Both the position numbers and the translations under genes were made by a program. A DNA stretch of 64,000 nt, from positions 3,542 to 67,541 of the forward strand of contig JAGGXW010000003.1 of assembly GCA_021162815.1 (NCBI GenBank), given 5' to 3'. Numbering within the stretch: position 1 is the stretch's first letter; each line of letters opens with the position of its first letter. This document shows, in pieces, positions 7,773-35,834 of the stretch. This stretch comes from Thermoplasmata archaeon (GTDB lineage: Archaea; Thermoplasmatota; E2; UBA202; JdFR-43). The notes under the pieces are model-generated. The model saw nothing but the letters and a program-made list of their open reading frames with translations, made no database searches and was not told where the DNA came from.

Positions 7773-8018
7773 TTACCTCCTTTTCTTCTTTATTTTTTCA
7801 TCAAGAAGCATCAGAAGCTCCTCTATTTCATCCTCGCTCACATAGCTCTCTCTCTGCTCCATTTTTATCTCAAATAATCTCAGTCTTATTGCCTCCTTGC
7901 ATAATTCAGCGACACTGGTATAACCCAGCTCGGGATTTTTTGTTATAAGCTTTTCAATTTCCTCGTGAAGCTCCTTCGGTATTGAAATGGTGCTGTACTT
8001 GAGTTTCTTCTCTTCCAT
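7773..8018 (-). CDS. Ribbon-helix-helix (CopG/Arc/MetJ-like) DNA-binding protein
   Basis: 81 aa. The N-terminus KYSTISIPKELHEEIEKL fits the RHH beta-strand and first helix. It is a clear paralog of the ORF at 8999..9226. Confidence 0.6.
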   Translation of the reverse strand: MEEKKLKYSTISIPKELHEEIEKLITKNPELGYTSVAELCKEAIRLRLFEIKMEQRESYVSEDEIEELLMLLDEKIKKKRR

Positions 8019-8065
8019 AAAGCCTAATGTATATATTGATATATTTATTTTACTATTGTTTTGAG
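8019..8065. promoter_or_regulatory. Bidirectional AT-rich promoter region with a palindromic TATA-like element between the RHH gene and the AGT-EndoV gene
   Basis: TGTATATATTGATATATTTATTTT lies about 25 to 35 nt upstream of the ATG at 8066, and on the other strand upstream of the ATG at 8018. This fits archaeal TATA spacing for leaderless transcripts. Confidence 0.3.
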
Positions 8066-8968
8066 ATGGGTGTTAATATTCCAGATTTATATGAAGAAAC
8101 TTACATGCTAACAAAGCAGATTCCGAGGGGCGAGGTATCAACCTACGGCGCAATAGCCAGGGCGCTGGGCGATGTGATTGCGGCCCGAGCAGTTGGAAAG
8201 ATGCTGCATGAGAATCCATATAAGGAGGTGCCATGCTATCGTGTCATTCATTCTGATGGCAGGGTTGGAGGCTATGCTGGAGGTGTGGAGAAGAAAATTG
8301 AGATGCTTAAAAGAGATGGAATTGAGATAATAAATGGAAAAATTGATCTGAACAAATACCTGTTTGATGATTTTGTTACGGACATGCCATTAAAGAGGCT
8401 GAGAGAGGAGCAGGTGAGGGTAGCATCCATGGTAAAGCAGGATGGAGAACTGGAATGGAAGATAATAGGGGGGATGGATGTTTCGTACGGCAACTACGCC
8501 CACGGAGCATATGTTGAGATGGACAGTAATGGCAGGATAATAAGAGGTTATACTGTTTCAATGAAGATAAGATTTCCCTATATTCCCACATATCTTGCAT
8601 TCAGAGAGCTTCCCGTTCTGGAGAGGCTGTATGAAAAGGCAGAGGCGGATATAATAATGGTGGATGGAAATGGTATTCTCCATCCCTTAATGGCGGGTCT
8701 TGCAAGCCATTTTGGTGTTGTTATGGATGTGCCAACCATAGGTGTTGCAAAGAAATTACTCCTCGGAGAGATTTTGAATGATAGCATCATATTTAATGGA
8801 AAGGTTGTTGGAAAAAAGGTTGGCAGGGTTTACATCTCTCCAGGACATAAAATTGGTGTTGAAAGTGCGGCAAAAATTGCAAAAAATTTTATGAAATACT
8901 CCATTCCAGAGCCAGTAAGGCAGGCTCACATTCTTGCCAATAAGGAGAGGAGAAAGAGAGAGGGATAA
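8066..8968 (+). CDS. nfi: Bifunctional O6-alkylguanine-DNA alkyltransferase (C-terminal AGT domain) fused to endonuclease V
   Basis: N-terminal ~90 aa show the AGT DNA-binding and active-site pattern (STYGAIARALG ... AARAVGKMLHENP ... VPCYRVI ... GGYAGG). The remainder carries EndoV motifs (GMDVSY, YIPTYLAFRELP, VDGNGILHP, GVAKK). The ORF track starts at 8027, but its first 13 aa read like translated promoter sequence, so the start used here is the ATG at 8066. Confidence 0.8.
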   Translation: MGVNIPDLYEETYMLTKQIPRGEVSTYGAIARALGDVIAARAVGKMLHENPYKEVPCYRVIHSDGRVGGYAGGVEKKIEMLKRDGIEIINGKIDLNKYLFDDFVTDMPLKRLREEQVRVASMVKQDGELEWKIIGGMDVSYGNYAHGAYVEMDSNGRIIRGYTVSMKIRFPYIPTYLAFRELPVLERLYEKAEADIIMVDGNGILHPLMAGLASHFGVVMDVPTIGVAKKLLLGEILNDSIIFNGKVVGKKVGRVYISPGHKIGVESAAKIAKNFMKYSIPEPVRQAHILANKERRKREG

Positions 8969-8980
8969 ATTATATATTTC
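8966..8980 (+). promoter_or_regulatory. TATA-like box upstream of the second RHH gene
   Basis: AAATTATATATTT lies about 20 to 30 nt upstream of the ATG at 8999. Confidence 0.3.
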
Positions 8981-8998: not shown

Positions 8999-9226
8999 AT
9001 GGTAAAATACAGTACCGTCTCCATACCAAAAGAACTCCACGAGGAGATAAGAAGGACTGTTCTCGCTGACCCGAGGTTCAAATACAGGAGTGTGGCTGAA
9101 TTTTCTATAGAGGCCATACTTATAAGACTGGATGAAATAAGAAGAGAACTTGAAAAGGAGAAAAGAAATAGAAAAAAAAGACTGGCAAAAATTGTCCAGG
9201 ACATTAAAAAGGAGCTGAAGCTGTAG
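8999..9226 (+). CDS. Ribbon-helix-helix DNA-binding protein (paralog of 7773..8018), first gene of the ten-gene operon
   Basis: MVKYSTVSIPKELHEEIRR aligns with KYSTISIPKELHEEIEK of the other RHH gene. The ORF track opens at 8993 with a GTG, and the ATG at 8999 is more plausible. Confidence 0.6.
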   Translation: MVKYSTVSIPKELHEEIRRTVLADPRFKYRSVAEFSIEAILIRLDEIRRELEKEKRNRKKRLAKIVQDIKKELKL

Positions 9227-9271
9227 TAGAAAAGTTTATATATTTGTTGCTATATATGCAAAATGGTGATT

Positions 9272-9317
9272 TAATATGCCATGGGGTTATGGATTTGGTA
9301 GAGGATGGAGAATGGGA
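9272..9317 (+). repeat. Direct repeat, copy 1 (about 42 nt spanning RBS/start of micro-protein A)
   Basis: TAATATGCCATGGGGTTATGGATTTGGTAGAGGATGG recurs at 9489..9535 with one mismatch plus a 1-nt indel. Confidence 0.7.
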
Positions 9318-9491
9318 AGAGGAAGAGGATTTGGAGCCACACTTGGTTACTGTCCATATACAGGCTTACCAAGAGGCTGGAGATGGTTTATGCCTTATGG
9401 AAACGCAGGGGCGTATGGATACAGAGTGCCGTACACATACTACACACCTTATACACCATATTACAGGCCATACTATCCATGGTGGTGGTAA
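9276..9491 (+). CDS. Gly/Tyr/Trp-rich low-complexity micro-protein A (71 aa)
   Basis: MPWGYGFGRGWRMGRGRGFG ... YYRPYYPWWW. It shares its first 11 aa and about 42 nt with the next ORF, and its stop lies 2 nt before the next ATG. Confidence 0.45.
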   Translation: MPWGYGFGRGWRMGRGRGFGATLGYCPYTGLPRGWRWFMPYGNAGAYGYRVPYTYYTPYTPYYRPYYPWWW

Positions 9492-9535
9492 TAATGCCAT
9501 GGGGTTATGGATTTGGTAGAGGATGGGGAATGGGA
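9489..9535 (+). repeat. Direct repeat, copy 2
   Basis: See copy 1. Confidence 0.7.
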
Positions 9536-9706
9536 TGGCAGTACGGCATGCCATGGCAGCAGTATGGACAGTCATACATGCCTTATCAGCCATACCAGCC
9601 AAGTGTTGAGCAGGAACTTTATATGATTGAGCAGGAATTGAATGCCATAGAGGCAAATCTCGCAAACATAAAGAGAAGGCTTGAGGAGCTGAAAAGAAAT
9701 AAATAG
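9494..9706 (+). CDS. Gly/aromatic-rich micro-protein B with C-terminal coiled coil (DUF5320-like architecture)
   Basis: MPWGYGFGRGWGMGWQYGMPWQQYG ... followed by the heptad-like EQELYMIEQELNAIEANLANIKRRLEELKRNK. The ORF track merges it into the longer, implausible ORF at 9305. Confidence 0.5.
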   Translation: MPWGYGFGRGWGMGWQYGMPWQQYGQSYMPYQPYQPSVEQELYMIEQELNAIEANLANIKRRLEELKRNK

Positions 9707-9722
9707 GGATAGGGTTTAAGGG

Positions 9723-10229
9723 TTGATTAATATGAGAATACTTGTAGCGACAAATTCAGGTGGACTGGATGACATGGTATCATCGGTTTTTGCAAGAAGC
9801 CCCACATTTACTATAATAGAGGCTGATGGGCAGGAAATAAAGGATGTTAAGGTTATACCGAATCAGTTTGCAAACGCCGTACATGGAGCGGGAATACAGG
9901 CAGGCCAGTTTGTGGTGAGCCAGGGAATAGATGTGGCAGTTGCAGGCAATTTTGGGCCCAATGTTTCCTCCATACTTGCCCAGGCAGGGGTGAAGGCAAT
10001 TCCCGCCCAGGGAGTGGTGAAAGATGTCGTCAATGACATACTCTCTGGAAACATGCAGGCTCAATCATTGGCAACTCCAGCACCATCCTATCCTTCTCCG
10101 CAGCAGTATGCACCACCACCCTCCATAAATCCAGATGAAAAAATAGATGAGATGGAGGAGAAGATAGCAAGAATAGAGGCGATGATAAAGGAAATAAAGG
10201 ATATGCTGAAGCATCTCAGGGAGGAATAA
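9723..10229 (+). CDS. NifX/NafY-like dinitrogenase FeMo-cofactor family domain protein (PF02579-like) with Pro/Gln linker and coiled-coil tail
   Basis: MRILVATNSGGLDDMVSSVFARSPTFTIIE ... GAGIQAGQFVVSQGIDVAVAGNFGPNV ... AGVKAI fits the NifX-like fold. The C-terminus PQQYAPPPS ... EKIARIEAMIKEIKDMLKHLREE resembles the tail of micro-protein B. Confidence 0.75.
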   Translation: MINMRILVATNSGGLDDMVSSVFARSPTFTIIEADGQEIKDVKVIPNQFANAVHGAGIQAGQFVVSQGIDVAVAGNFGPNVSSILAQAGVKAIPAQGVVKDVVNDILSGNMQAQSLATPAPSYPSPQQYAPPPSINPDEKIDEMEEKIARIEAMIKEIKDMLKHLREE

Positions 10230-10230
10230 A

Positions 10231-10461
10231 ATGGCAATGGGCATGGGCAGAGGAGCAGGCGCAGGCAGCGGCAAAGGAAGAGGAGCCGGAGGCGGAGCAG
10301 GCGGCGGCTACGGCGGTAGAGGCAGAGGCGGAGGAAGAGGAGCAGGGCCAGGTGGAGAGTGCAGGTGCCCTGCTTGTGGCTATACCATGCCTCATCAGCC
10401 AGGTGTGCCATGCTTTCAGCTTACCTGCCCCAAGTGCGGGGCAAAGATGATAAGAGTTTAA
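10231..10461 (+). CDS. Gly/Arg-rich micro-protein with C-terminal C4 zinc ribbon
   Basis: GRGAGAGSGKGRGAGGGAGGGYGGRGRGGGRGAGPGG followed by CRCPAC ... CPKC, four Cys in ribbon spacing. Its ATG is 2 nt after the upstream stop, and its stop abuts the next ATG. Confidence 0.5.
   Translation: MAMGMGRGAGAGSGKGRGAGGGAGGGYGGRGRGGGRGAGPGGECRCPACGYTMPHQPGVPCFQLTCPKCGAKMIRV
10240..10355 (+). repeat. GC-rich (GGN)n simple-sequence tract inside the micro-protein gene
   Basis: About 115 nt of GGC/GGA/AGA/GCA repeats in an otherwise AT-rich window. Confidence 0.6.
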
Positions 10462-11298
10462 ATGATAATAGCTGTTGCAAGCGGAAAGGGGGGCACAGGC
10501 AAAACAACCGTTGCGACAAATCTGGCCATCTCCATAGGAAAAGCCCGCATACTTGATTGCGATGTTGAGGAGCCAAATGCCAACATTTTCCTTAAATTTG
10601 ACATGGAAAAGAAGGAGGATGTGAATGTTCTCATTCCATCCATAGATAAGCAGAAGTGCACACTCTGCGGGGATTGTGTGAATGCATGCAGATATAATGC
10701 CCTCGCAATGTTGCCAAAGGATATTCTTCTTTTTCCAGAGCTTTGCCATGGATGCGGGCTATGCAGCATGGTTTGCAAATATGATGCAATAACCGAGGTG
10801 CCGAGAAAGATAGGTGAGATACTATATGGAAAAAATGAGGAAATAGAACTGTATCAGGGTCTCCTCAACATTGGAGAGGCGATGGCAACACCCATAATAA
10901 AGGAGTTGAAGAAATATTCCAATGATATGACAATAATAGATGCTCCTCCAGGAAATGCATGCCCCACCATGGAGGCGATAATAGATTCAGATTTCGTCAT
11001 TCTTGTTACAGAGCCAACTCCATTTGGCCTTCATGATTTGAAGATTGCTGTAAGCATTGTGAGAAAATTTGGAATACCTTTTGGAGTGATAATAAACAAG
11101 TATGGAATAGGTGATGATGGAGTGGAAAAATACTGCGAGCAGGAGGGGATAAGGATTATGATGAAAATACCCCACAGCAGGGAAATAGCAAATCTTTACT
11201 CCAAGGGCATACCCTTCGTTGAAAAAATGGAGGGATGGAAGGAAAGATTTATTGAGCTTTATGAGGAGATAAAAAATGAAACAGGTGGCAATAGCTAG
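10462..11298 (+). CDS. MinD/ParA-family P-loop ATPase with inserted 2x[4Fe-4S] ferredoxin domain
   Basis: Deviant Walker A SGKGGTGKTT. Two ferredoxin-type Cys clusters (CTLCGDCVNAC and CHGCGLCSMVC) are inserted after the P-loop. Confidence 0.85.
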   Translation: MIIAVASGKGGTGKTTVATNLAISIGKARILDCDVEEPNANIFLKFDMEKKEDVNVLIPSIDKQKCTLCGDCVNACRYNALAMLPKDILLFPELCHGCGLCSMVCKYDAITEVPRKIGEILYGKNEEIELYQGLLNIGEAMATPIIKELKKYSNDMTIIDAPPGNACPTMEAIIDSDFVILVTEPTPFGLHDLKIAVSIVRKFGIPFGVIINKYGIGDDGVEKYCEQEGIRIMMKIPHSREIANLYSKGIPFVEKMEGWKERFIELYEEIKNETGGNS

Positions 11299-12133
11299 TG
11301 GAAAGGGTGGAACAGGAAAGACAACCCTCACTGCATCATTTGCATCTCTGGCAAAAGATAATACTGTATTTGCAGATTGCGATGTGGATGCATCAAATCT
11401 CCATTTAATTTTTGATCCCGTTGTTAAGGAAAAGGAGGATTTCTACGGCATGGAGCTGGCTGTTGTTGACAAGGAGAAATGCATAATGTGCATGGAGTGT
11501 AAGAAGGCATGCAGGTTCGATGCTATAACAGAGAATATTGACATAATAGCGGAGAGATGCGAGGGATGTGGTGTATGCGAATATGTATGCCCCGTCAAGG
11601 CAATAGAAATGAAGCCAAGGAAATCGGGAGAGGTTTTTGTCTCGGAATCAAGATTTGGATGGCTTGTTCATGCAAGGCTCAATATCGGTGAGGAAACAAG
11701 CGGGAAGCTGGTGGCGGCGGTGAGGAATAAAGCCAAAGAGGTGGCAGAGAAGAATGGTAAAGATATGATAATAATAGACGCTCCGCCAGGCGTTGGATGC
11801 CCCGTTATTGCTTCCATAAGTGGCGTTAATCTCGTTGTTATTGTTGTTGAACCCACGTCTGCTGCAATTCATGATATGAAGAGGGTTAAGGAGGTTGCAG
11901 ATCACTTTAAGGTGCCATGTGCTGTGTGCATAAATAAATATGATATAAATGAGGAGAAGGCAAAGGAGATTGAGGAGTATTGCAGGGAGAATGGAATTGA
12001 GATTGTTGGCAAGATTCCCTATGATACAGTTATCACAGATGCGATGGTGAATGGCAAGAGTGTTGTTGAATACAATAAGAAAGTGGCAAATATTATGAAA
12101 GATATATGGATAAATGTCAAAAATAAATTATAA
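11276..12133 (+). CDS. MinD/ParA-family P-loop ATPase with inserted 2x[4Fe-4S] ferredoxin domain (paralog)
   Basis: SGKGGTGKTT with CIMCMECKKAC and CEGCGVCEYVC. Overlaps the upstream gene by 23 nt. Confidence 0.85.
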   Translation: MKQVAIASGKGGTGKTTLTASFASLAKDNTVFADCDVDASNLHLIFDPVVKEKEDFYGMELAVVDKEKCIMCMECKKACRFDAITENIDIIAERCEGCGVCEYVCPVKAIEMKPRKSGEVFVSESRFGWLVHARLNIGEETSGKLVAAVRNKAKEVAEKNGKDMIIIDAPPGVGCPVIASISGVNLVVIVVEPTSAAIHDMKRVKEVADHFKVPCAVCINKYDINEEKAKEIEEYCRENGIEIVGKIPYDTVITDAMVNGKSVVEYNKKVANIMKDIWINVKNKL

Positions 12134-12620
12134 GGTGCTGAAAAGGATAAAGCTCGTGATTACAGTTATTATAATTGCTGGAGTTATAATTGACACCACC
12201 CTTGTTTACATGGCTGCAAGTTCTCTCAAAATAAATGGAGAGAGAATAAACGGAATATATCCTGAAAATGTTGTTAAGGGCTATTATGAGGTTAAATTTG
12301 AGTTGCAGATTGAAAATCCACAGGACAAGAGCATAGAGGTTGATTACATAAGTTACAACGTTTATATAAACAATGAATTTGTGGGAAAGGGAGCAAAACC
12401 TGCTTTTTCAATTCCTCACGGGGTGCATAACTACACATTCAGCTTGACATTCAACATTTACAATCTCTCTTCATCAACTTCTTCCATAATAATGAATCAG
12501 GGAAACGTGGATGTTAAAATTAAAGGGGATGTTATTGTTCCATTGAAATTTCTTGGCTTATTCACATGGAGGTATATAAAATTGCCATATGAGAAGACTG
12601 AGAATGTGAGAATAAAATGA
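12114..12620 (+). CDS. LEA14/WHy-like (LEA-2 family) membrane-anchored protein
   Basis: N-terminal TM helix followed by a beta-rich domain whose pattern (VKGYYEVKFELQIENPQDKSIEVDYISYNVYINN) is typical of LEA-2/NDR1-like folds. Overlaps the upstream gene. Confidence 0.45.
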   Translation: MSKINYKVLKRIKLVITVIIIAGVIIDTTLVYMAASSLKINGERINGIYPENVVKGYYEVKFELQIENPQDKSIEVDYISYNVYINNEFVGKGAKPAFSIPHGVHNYTFSLTFNIYNLSSSTSSIIMNQGNVDVKIKGDVIVPLKFLGLFTWRYIKLPYEKTENVRIK

Positions 12621-13846
12621 AAAAGGAATTGCTCAAAGCAGGATATAAAAGTGCGTTTTATGTTCTCATAGCCACTTTTGCCCTCTCCATATTCAAACTT
12701 GCTGCAGGTATAATCTCAAACACTCTTGTTGTGGTTGTTGATGGTATGCATTCAATGGTTGATATGGTTGTTCTGATGGTGGCATACATTGGAATAAGAA
12801 TATCATGCAAGGAACCTGATAGAAAATTTCAGTATGGGTATTACAAGGCGGAGAGCATAGCCTCTCTTTTCATTTCTTTATTCATTTTTATTGTTGCATT
12901 TAAATTCATGTACGAAGGCTATATGGCTCTTTTTAAAGAGCCTGAGAGCAAAATGCCATATCTTGCAATATTTGCAACAATCGTTTCCATAATCTCCTCA
13001 TATCTCATGTCTGTTTATCTTCTCAAAGCGGGAAAGAAAACAAAGATGCACTCCCTCATAGCCACATCAAATGAAAGAAAAATGGACATGCTTTCCTCCC
13101 TGATTGTCATTATTGCAATAGTGCTTGGTATGTACCACATAAGATATGTTGAGGGGATAATAACCATGGGCATAGCAGCAATAATACTGAAGACAGGCAT
13201 TCTGAGCTTAAGAGATGCCATAGCCTCTCTCATGGATGTGAGCCCGAGAGATGCTGAGGAGAGAGTAAGAAAAATACTGGAAAATGCCAGAATAAGAGGA
13301 TACAAGGATTTAAAGCTTAGAAAGGCAGGGCCCTTCATATTCGGAGAGGTGAAAATTCTGCTCGATGCATCAATGGATATCCAGTCAGCCCATGATATTG
13401 CAGATGAAATTGAAGAAAAGGTAAAGAAAATAGGGAATGTTGATGGTTTCATAACCCATATCGAGCCATATTCTGGAGATGAGGTTAAGATGGCAATACC
13501 TGTGGAGAAAAGAAGCGGTGATGCAAACATAAGCAGAATATTCGGAAGATCCAGATATTTCATGCTCGTTTATATTGATACAAAGAATAAGGGCATAAAG
13601 AAACTATTCTTTGAGGACAATCCCCATCACGCAAAGGAAAAGCACGCTGGATTGGCGGCCGCCAGCATGCTTGCGGAGACGGGCGTGAGGTGCGTGGTGG
13701 TGAATAAGATAGGGGAGATAGCGTATTATGCTTTGAAAAATAAGGGAATCAGGATTTTTGAGTATGATGGCAGGGCTCTGGAGGCTGTGGATGAGTATAT
13801 GAAAGGGAAGCTTAAGGTGTTGAAAGAGCCAAAGAAGGTGGAATGA
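12617..13846 (+). CDS. Cation diffusion facilitator (CDF) metal transporter fused to a C-terminal NifX-like (PF02579-like) domain
   Basis: Six TM helices with the CDF signature (VVDGMHSMVDM, HxxxD sites). These are followed by the usual cytoplasmic CDF C-terminal domain and then an extra ~100 aa (RIFGRSRYFMLVYIDTKNKGIKKLFFEDNP ... LAETGVRCVVVNKIGEIAYYALKNKGIRIFE) matching the NifX-like fold. Confidence 0.8.
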   Translation: MKKELLKAGYKSAFYVLIATFALSIFKLAAGIISNTLVVVVDGMHSMVDMVVLMVAYIGIRISCKEPDRKFQYGYYKAESIASLFISLFIFIVAFKFMYEGYMALFKEPESKMPYLAIFATIVSIISSYLMSVYLLKAGKKTKMHSLIATSNERKMDMLSSLIVIIAIVLGMYHIRYVEGIITMGIAAIILKTGILSLRDAIASLMDVSPRDAEERVRKILENARIRGYKDLKLRKAGPFIFGEVKILLDASMDIQSAHDIADEIEEKVKKIGNVDGFITHIEPYSGDEVKMAIPVEKRSGDANISRIFGRSRYFMLVYIDTKNKGIKKLFFEDNPHHAKEKHAGLAAASMLAETGVRCVVVNKIGEIAYYALKNKGIRIFEYDGRALEAVDEYMKGKLKVLKEPKKVE

Positions 13847-14427
13847 TGTCATATGAGGATTTTTATGCAACGGACTTCGGAAGGTTTGTTCTTATGAATG
13901 AGGCAGGATATGTGGCAAAGAAAATGCACGGTCTGTTGTTAAGTGTTGGATGCGGTACGGGTATAATAGAAAGGGAGATAGCAAAGGAGGGAAATGAAAT
14001 AATATGTCTTGAGCCATCTGAGGAGATGGTAAAGCTTGCCAGGAGCAGGGTTGAGGTGGTGGAGGGTTATGCAGAGAATATGCCTTTCAGAGATGGAATG
14101 TTTGATGGCGTGTTTTTCATAACCTCCCTCGAGTTTGTTAACGATTATAAGAAAGCCATTGAAGAAGCCCACAGGGTTCTCAAGGAAAATGGAGTGTTTC
14201 TTGCCATGATGCTCAATTTCTCATCCGATTACTTTGCAAGAGCCTATGAAAAGGAGGGCTACATAAGAAGAAATATAAAGCACATGAATAATGAAATGAT
14301 AAAGAAGCATGCTGAAGAATTTTTTGATACCCGGCATTCTCTCTTTCTTTGCGAGGATATGGGCAGTGAATGCGATGATAAAAACAAACTTCTTTATGTG
14401 GTGGAGGGAATAAAGCTCTTACCATGA
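13843..14427 (+). CDS. Class I SAM-dependent methyltransferase
   Basis: Motif I LSVGCGTGII and a post-I acidic residue, a Methyltransf_11-like pattern. ATGA overlap with the upstream gene. Confidence 0.75.
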   Translation: MMSYEDFYATDFGRFVLMNEAGYVAKKMHGLLLSVGCGTGIIEREIAKEGNEIICLEPSEEMVKLARSRVEVVEGYAENMPFRDGMFDGVFFITSLEFVNDYKKAIEEAHRVLKENGVFLAMMLNFSSDYFARAYEKEGYIRRNIKHMNNEMIKKHAEEFFDTRHSLFLCEDMGSECDDKNKLLYVVEGIKLLP

Positions 14428-14844
14428 TTTTAACCTTTCCAGAATTATGGAGGGATTTATTTCCAGCACTCCCTCCATGCTCTTTATTTTATCAAGCAAT
14501 CTGTTCATCTCCCTGCTATCCTTTGCCCATATATCGGCCATTATCATATGTCCTCCCGATGTTATCGCCACACATTTAACATTTTCCATCTCCGTAAGCC
14601 TGCATGCGATTTTCAGAAATGCATTTGTATCTGTATTTATGCCCACATGAGCCACTATTTTGTATCCAATTTTTTCAGGATTTATCTTAAGTGTGTATCC
14701 CTCTATTATTCCATTTTCCTCCAGTTTCTTTATTCTCTTCCTCACCGCCGTCTCGGATATACCCAGCCTTCTGGCTATCTTTATGTAAGGCGTCCTTGCA
14801 TTCTTTGAAAGCATTTCCAGTATTATTTCATCCTTTTCGTCCAT
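14419..14844 (-). CDS. Lrp/AsnC-family transcriptional regulator
   Basis: N-terminal HTH (ILEMLSKNARTPYIKIARRLGISETAVRKRIKKLEENGII) and a C-terminal RAM domain. Confidence 0.85.
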   Translation of the reverse strand: MDEKDEIILEMLSKNARTPYIKIARRLGISETAVRKRIKKLEENGIIEGYTLKINPEKIGYKIVAHVGINTDTNAFLKIACRLTEMENVKCVAITSGGHMIMADIWAKDSREMNRLLDKIKSMEGVLEINPSIILERLKSW

Positions 14845-14904: not shown

Positions 14905-15417
14905 ATGGAGGAGGGAAAATTTGCATATGTCGCAGTAGTTTTAACCATTATATGGATTGCCCTGATATACAGCCCGGGCATATCAATGGAAGCTTTTCTC
15001 CAGGAGTTTATTGCAGGGGTTGTTGTTGCAGTGGCCATAGCTGCCATAACAGCAGGGAATTTTGAGGATGCTGGATTGAGATATTTTCATCCGAGAAGGG
15101 TGGCATATTTCATAGCATTTCTGTTCATATTTCTCATTGAGATGATAAAGGCAAATCTCAACATGGCAAGAATTGTCCTCTCGCCAAAACCTCCTGTGAA
15201 GCCAGGTATAGTTGAGATAGAAACAGAGCTAAAACAGCCATCTGCAAGGCTTTTCCTGGGGAATGCAATAACTCTAACTCCTGGAACAATGACCCTCGAT
15301 TATAAAGATAACAAGGCATATATTCACTGGGTTTATGTTGAAAGCGAAGACAGCAAAAAGGCGGGAGAGATAATAAAGGGAAAGTTTGAGAAATTCCTGA
15401 AGGAGGTGTACTCATGA
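14905..15417 (+). CDS. Mrp antiporter-like subunit E (MbsA/MbxA-like)
   Basis: Hydrophobic N-terminus and the MnhE-type motif ITLTPGTMTLD. Confidence 0.65.
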   Translation: MEEGKFAYVAVVLTIIWIALIYSPGISMEAFLQEFIAGVVVAVAIAAITAGNFEDAGLRYFHPRRVAYFIAFLFIFLIEMIKANLNMARIVLSPKPPVKPGIVEIETELKQPSARLFLGNAITLTPGTMTLDYKDNKAYIHWVYVESEDSKKAGEIIKGKFEKFLKEVYS

Positions 15418-15674
15418 ATCTGTATTTCTTTTATTTGATAATATCAATTCTTGCTCTTGCCATAGCTCTCTCCGCATACAGGCTGATAAAGGGACCAAGC
15501 TCTGCTGACAGGGCTGTGGCTCTTGATGCCCTCACAAACATAACAACGGCTCTTCTTGCATTAATAGCTGTAATTTCCGCAAGATTCATCTATCTTGATG
15601 TCGCCCTTGTTTATGCCATACTTGCTTTCATAGGTGTTATTGCCATAGCAAGATATCTGGAGGGGGGAATATGA
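15414..15674 (+). CDS. Mrp subunit F-like (MbsB-like)
   Basis: 86 aa with the MnhF motif GPSSADRAVALDALTN. ATGA overlap. Confidence 0.65.
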   Translation: MNLYFFYLIISILALAIALSAYRLIKGPSSADRAVALDALTNITTALLALIAVISARFIYLDVALVYAILAFIGVIAIARYLEGGI

Positions 15675-16006
15675 CGGAAATATTGAATTACCTCGGCATG
15701 CTATTTGTTTTCATCGGAGCCCTGTTTTTCCTCTTCGGCTCCATAGGGTTGATAAGAATGCCAGATTTATACAACAGAATGCAGGCATCAACAAAAACCA
15801 CAACATTGGGGGTGCTATCCTTCCTATTTGGCCTGGGTTTGATGGACCTGCAGTGGATGATTAAATTACTTGTAATAGCTCTCTTCATCGTTCTCACAGC
15901 ACCCGTGGGAGCGAGCGCTCTCGCCAGAGCGGCGTACAAGCATGGTATAAAGCTATGGGAAAACAGCGTTGTTGATAAGTATAGGGGAGGTAAGAAAAAT
16001 GATTGA
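15671..16006 (+). CDS. Mrp subunit G-like (MbsC-like)
   Basis: MnhG motif GLIRMPDLYNRMQASTKTTTLG. Confidence 0.7.
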   Translation: MTEILNYLGMLFVFIGALFFLFGSIGLIRMPDLYNRMQASTKTTTLGVLSFLFGLGLMDLQWMIKLLVIALFIVLTAPVGASALARAAYKHGIKLWENSVVDKYRGGKKND

Positions 16007-16247
16007 GTTCACCATAATGGCATGGATACTTGCATTGCTGGCTGCTGCAGCCGCCATATATGCTGTTGAGACAAAAGATTTGATTTCATCTGCCATAGCA
16101 ATGGGGGTTGCAAGCCTGGTTGTATCAATAATGTTTCTTCTGCTTCAGGCTCCAGATGTGGCGATAACGGAGGCTAGTATAGGGGCTGGAATTACAATGG
16201 CCGTGTTTGTGTATGCAATAGGAAAGACAGGGAGGTGGGAAGAATGA
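15969..16247 (+). CDS. MrpB N-terminal-domain-like small membrane subunit (DUF4040/MbhD-like)
   Basis: Two or three TM helices containing APDVAITEASIGAGI. Confidence 0.55.
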   Translation: MLISIGEVRKMIEFTIMAWILALLAAAAAIYAVETKDLISSAIAMGVASLVVSIMFLLLQAPDVAITEASIGAGITMAVFVYAIGKTGRWEE

Positions 16248-16969
16248 GAAAGCTGGCAGGAATTGTCATAGCAGGAATATTCTTCATTTCAATGATGATG
16301 CTATTTTACCACCTTCCAGCCTCTCATGACTTATCTTCAAATGAGTATTATTACAGGAATCCAATAAATGGAAGCGTTGCCAACGAAAGCATTCCGGAGC
16401 ATTATATAAAATATACAAAGAATGAGACAGGAGCTGTCAATGCAGTTACAGCAATAGTTGTTGAGTACAGAGGTTTTGATACCCTTGGAGAGGTGACGGT
16501 TCTATTCACGGCAGCAACAGGTGTTTCCTTTTTACTTTCCCTTGCCGTGAGAGGAAGGAAAAGGGAGGAAGCAAATCTCATTCTTAAAGAGGGTTCAAAA
16601 CTTGTTCTTCCATTCATACTGCTTACTGGTGCATACATATTCATTCATGGGCATTTAACACCAGGAGGAGGATTTCCAGGAGGGAGTGTTGTTGCCTCTG
16701 GTTTCCTACTCATGATGCTTGCCTATCCGAAGTTCTTCATGAAGGATAGAATATCATGGTTTGAAAGCGCCGCAGGCACCGCATTTGTTGTTATTGGATT
16801 ACTCGGCCTTGTTCTTGCCACCTCATTTCTGCAGAATTTCATTCCTGTTGGCACGCCGGGACAGCTTGTAAGTGCTGGAATAATTCCTCTCATCTACATA
16901 GCCATAGGATTTAAAGTTGGCTCTGAGTTGAGTGCAATAGTTAATAAAATGAAGGAGGTGCAGGGATGA
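16235..16969 (+). CDS. MrpB-like membrane subunit (MbhE-like)
   Basis: MnhB-domain motif NAVTAIVVEYRGFDTLGEVTVLF. Confidence 0.65.
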   Translation: MGRMRKLAGIVIAGIFFISMMMLFYHLPASHDLSSNEYYYRNPINGSVANESIPEHYIKYTKNETGAVNAVTAIVVEYRGFDTLGEVTVLFTAATGVSFLLSLAVRGRKREEANLILKEGSKLVLPFILLTGAYIFIHGHLTPGGGFPGGSVVASGFLLMMLAYPKFFMKDRISWFESAAGTAFVVIGLLGLVLATSFLQNFIPVGTPGQLVSAGIIPLIYIAIGFKVGSELSAIVNKMKEVQG

Positions 16970-17298
16970 TATGGGCAATGTATTTTGCGGTTGCAGTGCT
17001 TCTGACAGCAGGACTTTATGGGGTAATAACAAAGAAGAATCTGATGAAGGTGTTCATTTCACTTTCAATAATGGAGACAGGAGTAAATCTCCTGCTCATA
17101 ACCATAGGCTATATACCTGGAGGAACGGCTCCAATTGAGAATGGTAACTTTGCGAAATATGTTGATCCAGTTCCTCAGGCTCTCGTTCTCACAGCCATAG
17201 TCATAGGTGTTTCCGTTACGGCCCTTGCATTATCACTTCTCATAATGTATCATTCAAAGGCAGGAACACTAGAATATAAGGAGGGGATGAAATGGTAA
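16966..17298 (+). CDS. MrpC/NuoK-like membrane subunit
   Basis: 110 aa with three TM helices and a NuoK/MnhC-like pattern (LSIMETGVNLLLITIGY). Confidence 0.65.
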   Translation: MIWAMYFAVAVLLTAGLYGVITKKNLMKVFISLSIMETGVNLLLITIGYIPGGTAPIENGNFAKYVDPVPQALVLTAIVIGVSVTALALSLLIMYHSKAGTLEYKEGMKW

Positions 17299-18644
17299 TG
17301 CATCCTGTATTGCTTATAGCCATTCCATTGCTTGTTGCCTTCATTATACCACTCTTCAAAAAATATGGTCCCAGCATAGCTCTTGGTGCCCTTGCTCTGA
17401 ATACCGGCATATCCATAGCTTTATTCTCTGTTGTCTACTCCACAGGAACAGTTCATGAAATCATAGCAGGATTTGCTCCTCCCATAGGCATATTTCTTGC
17501 AGTCGACAGTCTCTCTGCCCTCCTTGCAATGATAATCAATTTATTTGCTCTGATAAACTTCATGGCGATAGGGAAGGCAAGCGAATACAAATTTTCAATG
17601 CTTTACCTTCTCGCAGTCGCTGGCTCCACGGGAATAGTGATAACGGGAGACATATTCAACATGTTTGTATTCTTTGAGATAACTGCAGTTGCTTCCTATG
17701 CTCTTGTGGCATCCAGAAAGGATAAGAAGTCAATGGAGGGAGCCATAAAATACATGATTCTCGGCTCTCTGGGCTCAATATTCATACTCATCGGTATAGC
17801 CCTAATATACAGCCAGCTTAAGAGCCTGAATATATATGATATAGCAAGCAGAATCTCAACAATGGATGCAAAAATAAAGTGGGCATCCGTTGCCATGCTG
17901 CTTACAGGAATAGGTGTGGAGGCGGAGATATTCCCTCTCAATGGATGGGTTCCGGATGCATATCAGGGTGCTTCTGGTGGTGTTGCATCTCTCCTTTCTT
18001 TTGGACCTTCGAAGGCAGCCATATATGCAATAGCGAGAATAATGCTTGTGATATTTCCTCTTCAGAAGGTTTATTACCTTGTGCTTACCATTGGAGTTAT
18101 CACCCTGCTGATAGGTGAGCTGGCTGCTCTGAAGCAGGAGAATGTTAAAAGAATGCTGGCATACTCCTCCATAGGACAGATGGGGCTTATAACAATAGCC
18201 ATAGCCATGGGCATGAATGAGAAGAATGCAATACTGGCAATATTCTTTTTAATGGTGAGCCATGCATCATCGAAAGCATCTCTCTTCTTGCTTTCCGACT
18301 CCAGTGGAATGGGAAGCGCGGCGACCAAATATACTGGCATTGTCTCTGTGCTGGGCATTGTTGGAATGCCTCCATTTGCCGGATTCTGGGGCAAATGGTA
18401 TCTTTTGATGGCTGCCATAAATGGTAATATGCTCTGGGTGATAGTACTCATATTCTTCTCCGGCATAGTTGAGGCAGCATACTTTGCAAGATATCTGCAC
18501 AGATATTATGGCAATGAGGAGAGTTTCTCGAGGCTTACAAAATACTCAATGGCAGTGCTTGCCACAATGAGCCTGATATTTGGATTACTCCCGCTAATAT
18601 ATGAAATGGGTTTAAAAACACTATTTGGAATGGGAGGTGTGTGA
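17292..18644 (+). CDS. MrpD/NuoN-like antiporter-type membrane subunit (MbsH-like)
   Basis: 450 aa, polytopic, with the NuoL/M/N-family proton-pumping fold pattern. Confidence 0.75.
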   Translation: MVMHPVLLIAIPLLVAFIIPLFKKYGPSIALGALALNTGISIALFSVVYSTGTVHEIIAGFAPPIGIFLAVDSLSALLAMIINLFALINFMAIGKASEYKFSMLYLLAVAGSTGIVITGDIFNMFVFFEITAVASYALVASRKDKKSMEGAIKYMILGSLGSIFILIGIALIYSQLKSLNIYDIASRISTMDAKIKWASVAMLLTGIGVEAEIFPLNGWVPDAYQGASGGVASLLSFGPSKAAIYAIARIMLVIFPLQKVYYLVLTIGVITLLIGELAALKQENVKRMLAYSSIGQMGLITIAIAMGMNEKNAILAIFFLMVSHASSKASLFLLSDSSGMGSAATKYTGIVSVLGIVGMPPFAGFWGKWYLLMAAINGNMLWVIVLIFFSGIVEAAYFARYLHRYYGNEESFSRLTKYSMAVLATMSLIFGLLPLIYEMGLKTLFGMGGV

Positions 18645-20475
18645 AATGCTTGATATAATACTTGCCGAAATACTGGTGGCTGCCATAATAACATTTTTTG
18701 TGGGGAGAAAGTTAGCAGCCATTATAGCCATGGCCGTTTCAATTCTCCCTTTAATCGCTCTGCTTGACTGGGCATCTCTGTATGGGTTTAATATCATACA
18801 TCTTGGAATTGAAAAAAGCATTTCCATACCAATTGCTGGCGTTTCGCTGAATCTCGCCATAACTCCCTTAGGATGGTTCTTTGCTCTGATGATTATTCCA
18901 TTATTCCCGGCAATAATGCTTTTTTCCTACTCCTTCTACAAGAAAAATGATGGTTTCTATCCATTTATGCTGCTTGCACTTCTCTCCAGCATAGGCATAA
19001 TAATGGCAAAGGACATGCTCACATTCTTTTTATTCTGGGAGATGATGTCATGGTCGTCCTTCCTTCTCGTTTACAGAAGCCGGGATAAGGAGGCGGTGAT
19101 GAGTTATTTCATATTCTCTTCTCTCTCAGCATTTCTGATATTCCTGGGCATACTCATAATATATCAGCAGAACGCCTCTCTCCTCCTTTCAAGTATAAAC
19201 ATTGAGAGCAATGCCTATGGAGTTGTTGCAATCATTTCACTCATTGCAGGGTTTGCAATAAAAAGCGTTCTCATGCCACTGCATGCATGGGCACCCTATG
19301 TTTACTCTAAGTCAGATGAACCATTTGTTGCTTTTCTTGCAGGAGGCCTGAGCAAACTTGGCTATTACGGAATGTTTCTCATTCTTTTCATTCTTGCAGG
19401 AGCAAAGGTTCTTGAAACTTACTTTACAAATCTCTCTCCAAATTACATTCTGGCTGTGTTCGGCGCTTTATCTGCGTTCATAGCAACTTTAATAGCCTTC
19501 ATGCAGGATGATATGAGGAAGCTTCTGGCTTACTCCTCCATAGGTCAGCTTGGATACATAGCCATTGGATTTGGAATAGGCACTCCTCTGGCAGTATCTG
19601 GAGCATTATTCCAGGCATTCAATCATGCTTTCTTCAAGGCTGTGCTTTTCCTGGCTGCTGGGGCTGTGGCATATCGCACAGGCAAGTGGAAGATAAGTGA
19701 GCTTGGAGGAGTTGGATACAGAATGCCTTTCACATTCATGGCTACCTTATTTGCCATATTTACTCTCGCTGCAATACCTATAACCAGTGGATTTGCAGCA
19801 AAATGGTTGCTTTATGAATCTGCCATAGATGCCAAATACATATTTGTGGCTCCAATCATGCTCATAGCAGGTGTGGGAGCATTTCTCTATTCTTTTAGAA
19901 TACTGTATGGCGTCTTTCTCGGAGAGAACCGTTATCCCAACATAAAGGAGGCGCCAAAGAGCATGGTTGCAGCAATGTTCATTCTTGTCATGCCTCTCCT
20001 GATATTTCTCATCTTTCCTGGCTACATGCTTGATATGATGCATGATGCACTCATATCGGGCAATATAGCCACGCTGAATCATAACGCGTTTGTCATAGAA
20101 ACATCTCTTGCATCCTACAACACCATTGCTGTGATAGTGGCATTGATGATTGCCCTCATTCCAGCCATACTCATATATAAGACGAGAAAGCATAGAGTTG
20201 TTGATTTCATGGATAATTATCTTGCTGGAGAGCTTCCAGAGCTATATGATAATAAGATATCAATGCATGCAGCAAGCAGGTTCTACAAGCCCATAGAGGA
20301 GATAATAGGGCCGTATTTTGAGCCAGGAACAATGAGTTACTATATGGCTATCTATAGAGGTCTTAAAGCAATATCAGATGCTGTAAGGAAGATTTATACT
20401 GGTAAGGCGGGTGATTATGCAATATATGTCACTCTCTTCCTTCTCATAATAATGGGGTGGTTTATATGGATGTGA
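18625..20475 (+). CDS. MrpA/D / NuoL-like antiporter-type membrane subunit (MbsH-prime-like)
   Basis: 616 aa, polytopic, second antiporter-like paralog. Overlaps both neighbouring genes. Confidence 0.75.
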   Translation: MEWEVCEMLDIILAEILVAAIITFFVGRKLAAIIAMAVSILPLIALLDWASLYGFNIIHLGIEKSISIPIAGVSLNLAITPLGWFFALMIIPLFPAIMLFSYSFYKKNDGFYPFMLLALLSSIGIIMAKDMLTFFLFWEMMSWSSFLLVYRSRDKEAVMSYFIFSSLSAFLIFLGILIIYQQNASLLLSSINIESNAYGVVAIISLIAGFAIKSVLMPLHAWAPYVYSKSDEPFVAFLAGGLSKLGYYGMFLILFILAGAKVLETYFTNLSPNYILAVFGALSAFIATLIAFMQDDMRKLLAYSSIGQLGYIAIGFGIGTPLAVSGALFQAFNHAFFKAVLFLAAGAVAYRTGKWKISELGGVGYRMPFTFMATLFAIFTLAAIPITSGFAAKWLLYESAIDAKYIFVAPIMLIAGVGAFLYSFRILYGVFLGENRYPNIKEAPKSMVAAMFILVMPLLIFLIFPGYMLDMMHDALISGNIATLNHNAFVIETSLASYNTIAVIVALMIALIPAILIYKTRKHRVVDFMDNYLAGELPELYDNKISMHAASRFYKPIEEIIGPYFEPGTMSYYMAIYRGLKAISDAVRKIYTGKAGDYAIYVTLFLLIIMGWFIWM

Positions 20476-21422: not shown

Positions 21423-21423
21423 A

Positions 21424-21975
21424 ATGATGAGATATGAAGAATGGAGTGGAATAGCCAGGAAGGCAAGCAAGCGTTCATTGTGGATGGTTCATTTCTGCAC
21501 AGGGTGCGGAGCAATTGAGATGCCACCTGTTATGACATCCCGCTATGACATGGAAAGATTCGGCATAGCTTCCATGGCTACGCCCCGCCAGGCTGATGTT
21601 TTGCTCATAACCGGCTATCTCACCGTTAAAACATTAAAGAGAGTTGTACAGGTGTATGAGCAGATGCAGTCTCCAAAATATGTAATAGCCCTTGGCTCAT
21701 GTACCATGAATGGAGGTATGTACTGGGATTCATACAACACCATAAAAAGGCTGGATAAGTACATTCCTGTGGATATATATGTGGCGGGTTGCATGCCCAG
21801 GCCAGAAGGGATAATGAATGCATTCCTGAAATTAATGAAGCTCATCGATGAGGGAAAAGCCAGAGGATGGGAGAGATATAAAAAATATTATGAGAGGTAC
21901 AAGAAAAACCAGGAGATGGCATTCAATTTTGTGAAGAAGGAAGAAAAAGAGGAGGAGAAAAATGAAGGCGATTGA
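21424..21975 (+). CDS. NuoB-like [4Fe-4S] small subunit (MbsJ-like)
   Basis: Four-Cys pattern FCTGCG ... GSCTMNGG ... GCMPRP, typical of NuoB and the small subunits of group-4 hydrogenases. Confidence 0.8.
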   Translation: MMRYEEWSGIARKASKRSLWMVHFCTGCGAIEMPPVMTSRYDMERFGIASMATPRQADVLLITGYLTVKTLKRVVQVYEQMQSPKYVIALGSCTMNGGMYWDSYNTIKRLDKYIPVDIYVAGCMPRPEGIMNAFLKLMKLIDEGKARGWERYKKYYERYKKNQEMAFNFVKKEEKEEEKNEGD

Positions 21976-23546: not shown

Positions 23547-23549
23547 AAA

Positions 23550-35832: not shown

Positions 35833-35834
35833 AA

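Follow-up and report, generated by a model that had tools for sequence, protein, structure and literature searches.

Two described systems of anaerobes come closest to the gene cluster that is the subject of this study. The protein IssA (iron-sulfur storage protein A; PF2025) of Pyrococcus furiosus consists of a globular IPR003731 domain of about 109 amino acids, followed by a proline-rich stretch and a cationic tail that is rich in glycine and aromatic residues and carries the sole cysteine of the protein (PMC5524996). The published tail counts 70 amino acids, including 7 cationic, 14 aromatic, 15 glycine, and 11 proline residues and 1 cysteine (PMC5524996). The globular domain of the Pyrococcus protein binds iron and sulfur on its own and then oligomerizes, and IssA improves growth of P. 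furiosus at high sulfide and iron. IssA particles reconstitute ferredoxin in vitro (PMC5524996). The second system is the orange protein (ORP) complex of D. vulgaris, which is encoded by DVU2103-DVU2109 and includes the paralogues Orp3 and Orp4, with two [4Fe-4S] motifs each, as well as Orp5, Orp8, and Orp9 (PMC6345978; PMC8359166). Orp8 is a NifX-like orange protein with a Mo-Cu-S cluster, and Orp9 is an Mrp-NifX fusion (PMC6345978). The complex is specific to anaerobes. The operon compared here with both systems comprises the genes G2 to G10 at positions 9276-14427 (+) of a 64,000-nucleotide stretch of DNA from a Thermoplasmata archaeon; this whole stretch is termed the window in the following, and one further gene, G1, lies upstream of the operon.

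The genes G2-G10 are proposed to encode an IssA-type intracellular iron sulfide handling system of an uncultured anaerobic archaeon, which would both sequester and mobilize iron sulfide and would be provided with an outlet in the form of an iron-type cation diffusion facilitator (CDF). This assignment is drawn from sequence comparison and is given a slightly better than even chance of being correct. A previous reading of the same stretch, made by a model without database searches (the sequence-only reading), had described a ten-gene operon with no assigned function. The latter part of this description is superseded, as described relatives do exist, namely, the IssA tail for G2, the IssA-type domain for G4, and Orp3/Orp4 as counterparts of G6/G7.

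The IssA Domain and Its Tail

The IssA sequences used for comparison were orthologues from Thermococcus and Palaeococcus, standing in for P. furiosus PF2025. One of them is the T. aggregans orthologue P0185, the N-terminus of which, MKIAIPTNGGG, is identical to the translation of the cloning primer published for PF2025. G4 is built of a NifX-like domain (residues 1-104), a disordered, proline-rich linker, and a C-terminal helix with coiled-coil character (residues 134-164). In the AlphaFold model, the pLDDT value is about 96 in the domain and below 50 for residues 115-129, and the helix is found at residues 134-164. The globular domain of G4 is 41% identical to P0185 over 111 amino acids (E 4e-16). 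Its top match among PDB sequences is MTH1175 (8e-13), a protein placed in the IssA clade by the authors of the IssA paper (PMC5524996). Foldseek retrieved TM1816, PH0822, the orange protein 2wfb, MTH1175, NafY, and NifX. The Orp8-type orange protein 2wfb is matched at 6.6e-7 by sequence and with a TM-score of 0.84 by fold, but G4 is closer to the IssA orthologues and to MTH1175. By its PF02579 match, its identity to P0185, and its relation to MTH1175, the domain is assigned to the IssA clade. The nearest named relatives of G4 originate from Thermoplasmata metagenome-assembled genomes (MAGs) of hydrothermal sediments.

The connection to the complete IssA architecture is provided by fused relatives of G4. 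In P0164-P0167, an IssA-like segment rich in glycine, arginine, and tryptophan is inserted between the linker and the helix of one continuous chain, and Pfam assigns both DUF5320 and Nitro_FeMo-Co to these proteins. A query with one fused relative retrieved Thermococcus and Palaeococcus proteins of 175-209 amino acids, which fit the published build of IssA and whose tails end in ...GRGWGARLGYCPWTGQPSRRTLRWLYGWW. Alignment with the fused relatives and the equal heptad length also suggest that the coiled coils of G3 and G4 have a common origin. A split form of such a protein was seen at L065 1853-2694 (+) of a Thermoplasmata MAG, where an ORF with an IssA tail (...GWGARLGYCPWTGMPRGWRRWYWPWW) begins 15 nucleotides past the stop codon of a 208-amino acid NifX+DUF5320 gene; this arrangement is either a recent split or an assembly frameshift.

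The tail itself is found in G2. This peptide possesses the core motif GATLGYCPYTGLPRGWRW and the C-terminus PWWW, which are conserved across its homologues, and it is kept in 8 further species. The motif matches G(A)RLGYCPWTG.PSRR.LRW..GWW, the C-terminus of 33 IssA-type proteins among those collected; wherever the source of these motif carriers is named, it is Thermococcus or Palaeococcus. The short form GYC[PA]xTG takes a C-terminal position in every one of the 33 proteins. Of the 8603 ORFs that six-frame translation gave for the first 92 loci, 14 contain it, each of them being a G2-type small ORF. In a BLASTP comparison, G2 is 60% identical to P0185 over 20 amino acids (E 1e-4). With 71 amino acids and a pI of 9.9, G2 contains 8 Lys/Arg, no Asp/Glu, 14 glycine, 24 aromatic, and 9 proline residues and 1 cysteine; compared with the published IssA tail, the aromatic residues are more numerous (24 versus 14), while the remaining counts are close. 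By sequence, G4 is an IssA-type NifX-like domain, and G2 represents the tail of IssA, here a separate peptide with a gene of its own. Since G4 supplies the domain together with the linker and G2 supplies the tail, the window encodes IssA in pieces.

The Small Peptides G3 and G5

G3 consists of a head rich in glycine, tryptophan, and tyrosine and of a four-heptad coiled coil, the heptads being read by eye from the sequence. G2 does not match the DUF5320 model of Pfam, to which G3 belongs; its GYC and TGLP.GW motifs are nevertheless similar to what is found in the N-terminal half of the longer DUF5320 proteins encoded at related loci. The head of G5 is 57% glycine and has a pI of 12. It is followed by the motif GPGGxCxCPxCGxxxPHxxGxPCxxxxCPxCGxxMxR, which is kept across archaeal and bacterial phyla, in a position between the NifX gene and the ATPase genes. 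When 1.84 billion proteins were searched, 1353 cluster representatives of the family were retrieved at E <= 1e-3, and no Pfam or NCBIfam family scores above threshold for G5. The plain C4 zinc ribbon of the sequence-only reading has to be replaced by six conserved cysteines and one histidine. Homology of G5 with Dde_3197/Orp5, a small [2Fe-2S] protein of the ORP operon, was considered and dropped, Dde_3197 being reportedly similar to NifX-like proteins.

The cysteine-ribbon motif of G5 was also encountered outside of such small peptides (P0287-P0291, P0294, and P0305). It is repeated 3-5 times in very large proteins of 600-1500 amino acids, and it is C-terminally located in proteins of about 130-200 amino acids, some of which are DUF134 fusions (e.g., L066 7412-7963). 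In a Thermoplasmatales relative (L021 136-1483 (+)), three small proteins flank a tailed NifX gene, namely, an 80-amino acid G2-like peptide, a 50-amino acid peptide with hardly any residues other than Trp, Tyr, Pro, and Met (MPFGMGPYGWLMMPYIMPWIYTW...), and a 72-amino acid mini-ferredoxin with a single [4Fe-4S] motif and a C-terminal coiled coil, encoded between the NifX and cysteine-ribbon genes. The similarity of the latter coiled coil supports the notion of a shared docking module.

The MinD-Ferredoxin ATPases

G6 and G7 both possess a deviant Walker A motif and an inserted 2x[4Fe-4S] ferredoxin domain with two CxxCxxCxxxC motifs. They are 35% identical to each other, and G7 is likely the heterodimer partner of G6. 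The nearest solved structures are those of archaeal MinD proteins, none of which has a ferredoxin insert. In an alignment of 115 sequences from many phyla (113 homologues plus G6 and G7), the eight ferredoxin cysteines and two further cysteines are conserved in at least 110 of the MinD-ferredoxin ATPases. The additional cysteines are C33, in a switch-I-like DCDV sequence, and C167, within DxPPGxxCP, in G6, corresponding to C35 and C175 in G7. C167 is situated seven residues past the Walker B aspartate, as is the cluster ligand Cys132 in NifH. This spacing may indicate a further metal site that is linked to the nucleotide switch. As to the NifH family, G6 and G7 gave weak partial Fer4_NifH matches only. 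Both proteins fit Orp3 and Orp4 as these are described in the literature (PMC6345978). Matches of the operon to the NCBIfam model MrpORP were partial and far below its 450-bit cut-off.

Conservation of the Cluster across Phyla

With the aligned G4 family as the query, a scan of genomes yielded 80 species-level loci, whose ORFs were called and searched with the ten window proteins and with motifs. The loci span Thermoplasmatota, Hadarchaeota, Thermococci, Altiarchaeota, and Methanomicrobia among the archaea, together with Bipolaricaulota, Thermotogae, Armatimonadota, Parcubacteria, and Desulfuromonas, so that the core is present in about ten phyla. The pair of MinD-ferredoxin ATPases is found at 51 of the 80 loci and at 31 of the 37 loci that are at least 12 kb long. 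A DUF5320-like gene, which precedes the NifX gene, is likewise present at 51 loci, the Gly/Arg cysteine-ribbon gene at 30, a G10-like methyltransferase at 19, the CDF-NifX fusion at 10, and a LEA_2 gene at 3. The commonest order is DUF5320, tailed NifX, cysteine ribbon, second NifX, ATPase, ATPase. These figures bear out the recurrent neighborhood of NifX-like, MinD-ferredoxin, and DUF5320 genes in anaerobes that the sequence-only reading had put forward.

In L007 (75% CDF identity) and L008 (about 50%), all nine genes are arranged in unchanged order within different flanks. At 41% identity (L009), DUF134, NifX, CDF-NifX, and two ATPases are found. An Aenigmarchaeote (L010) has the series RHH_1, DUF134, DUF5320, NifX, CDF-NifX, NifX, FeoA, DtxR, DUF5320, and two ATPases; in a bacterium of the candidate phyla radiation (CPR; L011), small ORFs are followed by NifX, CDF-NifX, and NifX; and in a member of the Methanomassiliicoccales (L012) the CDF-NifX fusion gene stands alone. 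The fusion forms at least 120 clusters at 90% identity, with representatives in Aenigmarchaeota, Thermoplasmatota, Woesearchaeota, Methanomassiliicoccales, and CPR bacteria. Gene neighborhood had been named as a check on the sequence-only reading, and its outcome is favorable: nine genes are kept in order, which rules out a chance juxtaposition as well as small ORFs devoid of homologues.

The IssA locus of T. aggregans includes a gene for a G10-like methyltransferase (phmmer E 1e-18), located upstream of IssA at a distance of about 1.1 kb, and, in addition, a radical S-adenosylmethionine (SAM) gene, a metallo-β-lactamase (MBL)-fold gene, two more tailed NifX genes, a gene for a 68-amino acid peptide rich in tryptophan, tyrosine, and glycine, and a MinD-ferredoxin gene. 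The list of proteins immunoprecipitated with IssA includes PF0738, a 21-kDa "methyltransferase type 11", with an expectation of 7.7, which is not significant (PMC5524996, Supplementary Table 1). In family and size class, PF0738 agrees with G10 and with the methyltransferase encoded beside T. aggregans IssA.

The Transporter G9 and the Accessory Proteins G8 and G10

G9 is a member of the CDF superfamily (TIGR01297, 198.7 bits versus a cut-off of 82). The best-scoring NCBIfam subfamilies are MamM (127 bits), FieF (124 bits), and MamB (124 bits), the equivalog cut-offs being 350-420. Aligned to YiiP, the transport site of G9 is formed by H45/D49 and E153/D157 (YiiP: D/D-H/D), and the consensus of the fusion family reads [H/D]-D / [E/D]-[D/H]. 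In the C-terminal domain, H259, H281, and E283 are conserved in 120 fusion proteins. With its metal sites intact, G9 looks functional as a transporter, and its metal is not readable from the site residues. Its NifX-like domain is cytoplasmic. In G8, a Lys/Arg-rich N-terminus precedes a hydrophobic segment, and this order suggests that the LEA_2 domain is extracellular. The gene is restricted to the closest relatives (L007, L008, L013, L014, and L016), and G8 is therefore an accessory confined to a narrow clade, while G10 is a recurrent accessory of the cluster.

Layout of the Operon

The coordinates are compiled in Table 1. Ten ORFs on the forward strand were found between 8999 and 14427, both in the ORF list and in the raw sequence, and the junctions from G2 to G10 are tight. 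The gaps measure 2 nucleotides for G2/G3, 25 for G3/G4, 1 for G4/G5, and 0 for G5/G6; the following genes overlap by 23 (G6/G7), 20 (G7/G8), 4 (G8/G9), and 4 (G9/G10) nucleotides. G1 and G2 are separated by 49 nucleotides, which contain a promoter-like element and the ribosome-binding site GGTGA. The pair TAGAAAAG-TTTATATA is presumably an archaeal B recognition element/TATA box, the assignment being putative and made by consensus. Near-identical elements of 48-49 nucleotides precede G2 homologues in five species (L007, L008, L013, L015, and L016), although identity between the operon proteins of these species and their counterparts in the window is only about 50-75%.

Table 1: Features of the operon and of the gene upstream of it (positions in the window).
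Feature	Position	Strand	Description
G1	8999-9226	+	75 amino acids; possibly an RHH-type DNA binder; lineage-specific, outside the conserved unit
Operon promoter/leader	9227-9275	+	TAGAAAAG + TTTATATA (9235-9242); second TATATAT (9251-9257); GGTGA (9265-9269); then ATG of G2
G2	9276-9491	+	71 amino acids; free-standing homologue of the IssA C-terminal tail; no Pfam match
G3	9494-9706	+	70 amino acids; DUF5320 (PF17253), E 1.2e-8, 36.5 bits versus cut-off 27
G4	9732-10229	+	IssA-type NifX-like; Nitro_FeMo-Co PF02579, 2.3e-15
G5	10231-10461	+	76 amino acids; Gly/Arg-rich head and six-Cys/one-His ribbon; sub-threshold zinc-ribbon matches only
G6	10462-11298	+	CbiA/ParA and two Fer4 motifs; MinD/ParA ATPase with ferredoxin insert
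G7	11276-12133	+	CbiA/ParA and two Fer4 motifs; MinD-ferredoxin ATPase paralogous to G6
G8	12114-12620	+	LEA_2, 1.1e-6, 29.5 bits versus cut-off 25.4; single-pass membrane protein
G9	12617-13846	+	Cation_efflux, ZT_dimer, and Nitro_FeMo-Co (Pfam)
G10	13843-14427	+	class I SAM methyltransferase; Methyltransf_11, 1.1e-22

G1 has a separate TATA-like box, aaattatatat, at about 8967-8977, and no G1 precedes the operon in L007, L008, L013, L014, and L016. Since the promoter element of G2 is kept in species that are devoid of G1, the conserved transcription unit consists of the nine genes G2-G10. Hence, the ten-gene operon of the sequence-only reading stands for G2-G10, but not for G1 with its distance of 49 nucleotides and its own TATA-like box. 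The repressor-type gene of the ribbon-helix-helix (RHH) class that was said to front the operon is likewise not borne out: G1 lies outside the conserved unit, and it gave no match to Pfam or NCBIfam. Its AlphaFold monomer has an extended N-terminus and helices at residues 11-20 and 32-72, a shape consistent with RHH proteins, but the model has no Foldseek match at E <= 0.001, and the RHH fold is not confirmed. A paralogue at 7773-8018 (-) is 57% identical to G1 over 49 amino acids and matches RHH_1 at E 0.32 only. The remaining domain calls of that reading, namely, DUF5320, NifX-like, MinD-ferredoxin ATPases, LEA_2, CDF-NifX fusion, and methyltransferase, were confirmed by Pfam.

In automatic gene calls, the region of G2 and G3 appears merged as a single "DUF5320" ORF of 133 amino acids (9305-9706 (+)), the first 63 residues of which are unconserved read-through that overlaps G2 out of frame. 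Judged by conservation, G2 (71 amino acids) and the short G3 (70 amino acids) are the real genes, and the ORF of 133 amino acids is spurious. Given such merging, IssA-tail peptides of the G2 type are probably underrepresented in the annotations of public genomes.

Indications for the Metal Concerned

Recurrent genes in the gaps of the relatives' clusters were grouped by all-against-all BLASTP, and group representatives were scanned against Pfam and NCBIfam. MBL-fold genes recur at 28 loci, radical SAM genes at 24, DUF134 at 23, DUF89/ARMT1 at 14, DtxR and J-domain genes at 8 each, thioredoxin and CMD at 6 each, Fur at 5, and Rrf2 at 4. Three unrelated families of iron or Fe-S regulators, together with FeoA, point to iron. 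In published expression data, IssA homologues increase in Methanococcus voltae grown on FeS2, the orp genes vary together with feoA and flavodoxin in transcriptomes of strain G20, and S0 induces both IssA and the sulfane reductase MBS in P. furiosus.

An Mrp-Mbx/MBS-like operon of 13 genes (14905-24038 (+)) begins 478 nucleotides downstream of G10, next to a divergent Lrp/AsnC gene (14419-14844 (-)). It encodes two Proton_antipo_M proteins, NuoH-, NuoB-, NuoC-, and NuoD-like subunits, and a ferredoxin. In the NuoD/MbhL-like subunit (22419-23546) the N-terminal CRIC is kept, but the protein ends in DICPPDIER instead of DPCxxC; on account of this replacement the complex looks Mbx/MBS-like rather than like a standard [NiFe] hydrogenase. 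The adjacency to the operon is seen in L007 but not in L008. The genes nifHDK, nifEN, and nifB were absent from the Pfam annotations of about 0-24 kb and from the 20 largest ORFs of 24-64 kb. Within the ORFs thus scanned, the statement of the sequence-only reading that the window has no nif structural genes holds, and its suggestion of metal or metallocluster handling rather than nitrogenase maturation fits this result as well as the iron regulators of other lineages. Its description as an export machine does not carry over; it derived from the CDF only, and the CDF-NifX fusion is found at 10 of 80 loci.

Several other regions of the window were noted in passing. Directly upstream of G1, at 8027-8968 (+), a fusion of DNA_binding_1 (methylated-DNA-protein-cysteine methyltransferase) and endonuclease V is encoded. 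At 29343-33787 (-) and 34471-36812 (+), a B12-binding radical SAM, a radical SAM, and a radical SAM-SPASM gene are consecutive, beside genes for a LuxE-like acyl-protein synthetase and a transglutaminase-like protein; these genes may form a cluster for the modification of peptides or lipids. At 52831-54444 (+), there is a gene for a full-length formate-tetrahydrofolate ligase (FTHFS, E 4e-233).

Proposed Function and Alternative Explanations

In the proposed iron sulfide handling system, the G4 domain would nucleate an anionic, thioferrate-like iron-sulfide polymer, which would be neutralized and coated by the cationic, aromatic, and glycine-rich segments of G2, G3, and G5, in line with the proposal made for the tail of IssA. 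Head and tail modules would be tethered noncovalently by the coiled coils of G3 and G4, with four heptads each, and the ratio of the modules would thereby be tunable. Loading and unloading of the particle would be the task of the G6/G7 heterodimer with its ATP and ferredoxin clusters, one possible route being the reduction of Fe(III) and the release of Fe(II) or small clusters; the two extra invariant cysteines of each subunit may make an additional metal site. Surplus Fe(II) would be vented across the membrane by G9, whose NifX domain would dock to the store or sense it. G8 and G10 would be accessory parts. The role of the system is probably iron detoxification and buffering under high sulfide. 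Such a role fits the adjacent Mbx/MBS-like respiratory operon and the fact that P. furiosus IssA is dispensable for particles but aids growth at high sulfide and iron.

Several points weigh against this assignment. The published screen for IssA tails demands a pI of at least 9, under 5 cysteines, and a glycine content of 20% or more over the final 40 residues; G4 fails it, having a pI of 4.8 and no glycine in its last 40 residues, which form the coiled coil. The tail is, however, present in trans, as G2 carries both the motif and the composition. The tail of G4 alone has no match to the DUF5320 model at E < 5. P. furiosus IssA is not required for the formation of thioferrate-like particles, and storage versus detoxification is debated. 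The link of G6/G7 to Orp3/Orp4 relies on the published description; moreover, the orange protein binds a Mo-Cu-S cluster, loss of ORP gives a morphology phenotype, and the function of the complex is called unclear (PMC6345978; PMC8359166). The H-D / E-D site of the CDF matches no standard Fe, Zn, or Mn signature. Iron regulators occur at a minority of loci and are missing from the cluster of the window, and radical SAM, MBL-fold, and DUF89 genes recur in the relatives' clusters without an obvious role in storage.

The strongest rival, which partly overlaps the iron sulfide handling proposal and is considered unlikely, is a line for assembly and delivery of Fe-S clusters or a complex cofactor instead of a store. 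NifX-like carriers would shuttle a precursor, G6/G7 would act as insertases or reductases in the manner of NifH, Mrp, or Nbp35, and the small proteins would be scaffolds or chaperones. NifX-like folds do carry cofactor precursors, and the Foldseek matches of G4 comprise NafY and the NifX of the NifEN complex. The deviant Walker A motif, the two ferredoxin clusters, and the two extra invariant cysteines of G6/G7, one of them at the spacing of NifH Cys132, would suit this purpose, as would the radical SAM gene that is found inside the cluster in 24 relatives; furthermore, MrpORP transfers clusters to Orp3/Orp4 in vitro (PMC6345978), and ferredoxin is reconstituted by IssA particles in vitro (PMC5524996). 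Yet the operon of the window is devoid of a radical SAM enzyme, a cysteine desulfurase, and an obvious target enzyme, while the homologue of the IssA tail, the cationic G5 head with 57% glycine, and the exporter suit bulk mineral better than single clusters. Storage and delivery are not mutually exclusive.

Two further explanations are distinctly improbable. One is a spatial role of the ORP type, in which the MinD-like ATPases would serve cell division or positioning and the metal centers would be redox sensors only. G6/G7 do belong to the MinD/ParA family, with archaeal MinD proteins as the closest solved structures. MrpORP is polar, Orp3/Orp4 are reported to have a MinD-like amphipathic helix, and lost orp expression in D. 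vulgaris leads to morphological defects, the complex being "putatively involved in cell division". The ORP authors, however, call this role a hypothesis; in 92 loci there are no division genes beside the cluster, and its recurrent partners are NifX-like proteins, IssA-tail and DUF5320 peptides, the CDF, and iron regulators. The other one, to which the same low probability is given, is the handling of Mo/W thiometallates or of a Mo-Cu-S cluster, with the CDF exporting the partner metal. Here, the resemblance of G4 in fold and sequence to 2wfb, which binds [S2MoS2CuS2MoS2]3- noncovalently (PMC6345978), is in favor; thiometallates would be generated in sulfidic, metal-rich vent sediment; and the radical SAM genes of relatives score weakly, far below cut-off, to MoaA and a tungsten-cofactor maturase. 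But G4 is closer to IssA orthologues (41%, E 4e-16) and to MTH1175 than to ORP, G2 is specifically an IssA tail, the recurrent regulators are of the iron or Fe-S type (DtxR, Fur, and Rrf2), and Mo/W transporter or pterin genes do not recur in the relatives' clusters. Finally, unrelated genes might have been juxtaposed by chance, with small ORFs that are no genes at all, a notion to which the lack of a Pfam family for G2 and G5 and the disagreement of gene callers on G2/G3 could lend some color. It retains a negligible probability and is refuted by the gene order, which is kept at 50-75% protein identity in different flanks; in addition, all small ORFs have conserved, motif-bearing homologues in many phyla, and fusion proteins unite the domains in one chain.

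A wider interpretation is put forward tentatively and with appreciably more doubt than the iron sulfide handling function itself. IssA, the ORP complex, DUF5320 proteins, and Gly/Arg cysteine-ribbon peptides may be parts of one ancient machine, widespread among anaerobes, that builds, coats, and dissolves protein-bound iron-sulfide nanoparticles. Interchangeable heads (NifX, cationic tail, and mini-ferredoxin) would be placed on a shared C-terminal coiled coil, a NifH-like, ATP-gated redox pair of the Orp3/Orp4 type would load and unload, and CDF-NifX would be the outlet. If this were true, the ORP complex, which has been without an assigned function since 2011, would gain its missing function, and IssA its missing partners. 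IssA is the sole known biological store of thioferrate, and the matter bears on how a protein with one cysteine organizes thousands of iron atoms and how these are retrieved. In this operon and its relatives, the domain and the tail of IssA are united with ORP-type ATPases and an iron-type CDF in one co-inherited unit, in which the splitting of IssA into domain and tail represents a natural dissection of the protein. Candidate partners can now be named, namely, DUF5320, the cysteine-ribbon peptide, the methyltransferase, and the two extra invariant cysteines of the ATPases. The arrangement also suggests that uncultured anaerobes, DPANN archaea and CPR bacteria among them, commonly handle iron sulfide in such a manner.

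IssA and the ORP complex have already been published. What appears to be new is the free-standing gene for an IssA tail and its relation to DUF5320 proteins; the co-inheritance of IssA-type proteins, ORP-type ATPases, the Gly/Arg cysteine-ribbon family, and CDF-NifX across many phyla; and the two additional invariant cysteines of the ATPases as well as the conserved promoter of the operon. In the literature searched, there was no paper discussing the function of DUF5320 or mentioning COG1149, and the link between DUF5320 and the IssA tail has apparently not been made. Searches for COG1149/COG1433 and for PF02579/IPR003731/DUF134 gave nothing on the cluster beyond the IssA and ORP papers. The words "operon" and "MinD" are absent from the IssA paper (PMC5524996).

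Comparison with Known Systems

Nitrogenase cofactor trafficking by NifX/NafY/NifB-NifH likewise makes use of NifX-fold carriers and of a SIMIBI-class ATPase with a deviant Walker A motif and Fe-S clusters, and relatives of the window operon add a radical SAM gene. Unlike NifH in nitrogenase assembly, G6/G7 are MinD family members that contain a ferredoxin insert, and the G4-type carriers have cationic low-complexity partners. To the iron transporters MamB/MamM and FieF/YiiP, G9 is related by the best scores of its CDF core and by a ZT_dimer domain with His/His/Glu ligands, and it shares with MamB/MamM a genetic association with an iron biomineral system. In contrast to MamB, MamM, and FieF, it has a unique C-terminal NifX-like domain and H-D/E-D in place of D-D/H-D, and no membrane-bounded organelle is implied.

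The ORP complex and the operon of the window have in common that paired MinD-like ATPases with two [4Fe-4S] motifs each are encoded beside NifX-like single-domain proteins and that both are specific to anaerobes; DUF134 regulators are found in the clusters of relatives. The Mrp/NBP35-NifX fusion (Orp9) and control by sigma-54/OrpR are lacking in the window, as would be expected in an archaeon, and the promoter of the operon is archaeal-type, as opposed to sigma-54 in ORP. Additional components in comparison with ORP are the IssA-tail and DUF5320 peptides, the cysteine-ribbon peptide, CDF-NifX, LEA_2, and the methyltransferase.

Summarizing, IssA of P. furiosus (PF2025; Vaccaro et al. 2017, PMC5524996) shares with G4 the IPR003731/PF02579 domain and the proline-rich linker and with G2 the tail motif LGYCP(W/Y)TG.P.R..RW..WW and the single cysteine. 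Unlike IssA, the window has the domain and the tail on separate polypeptides, G4 being acidic with a coiled-coil end, and it adds two cationic peptides (G3 and G5), all of which share a single operon with two ATPases and a CDF. The same accessory families as in the window operon and its relatives are present at the Thermococcus locus of IssA, in a looser arrangement.

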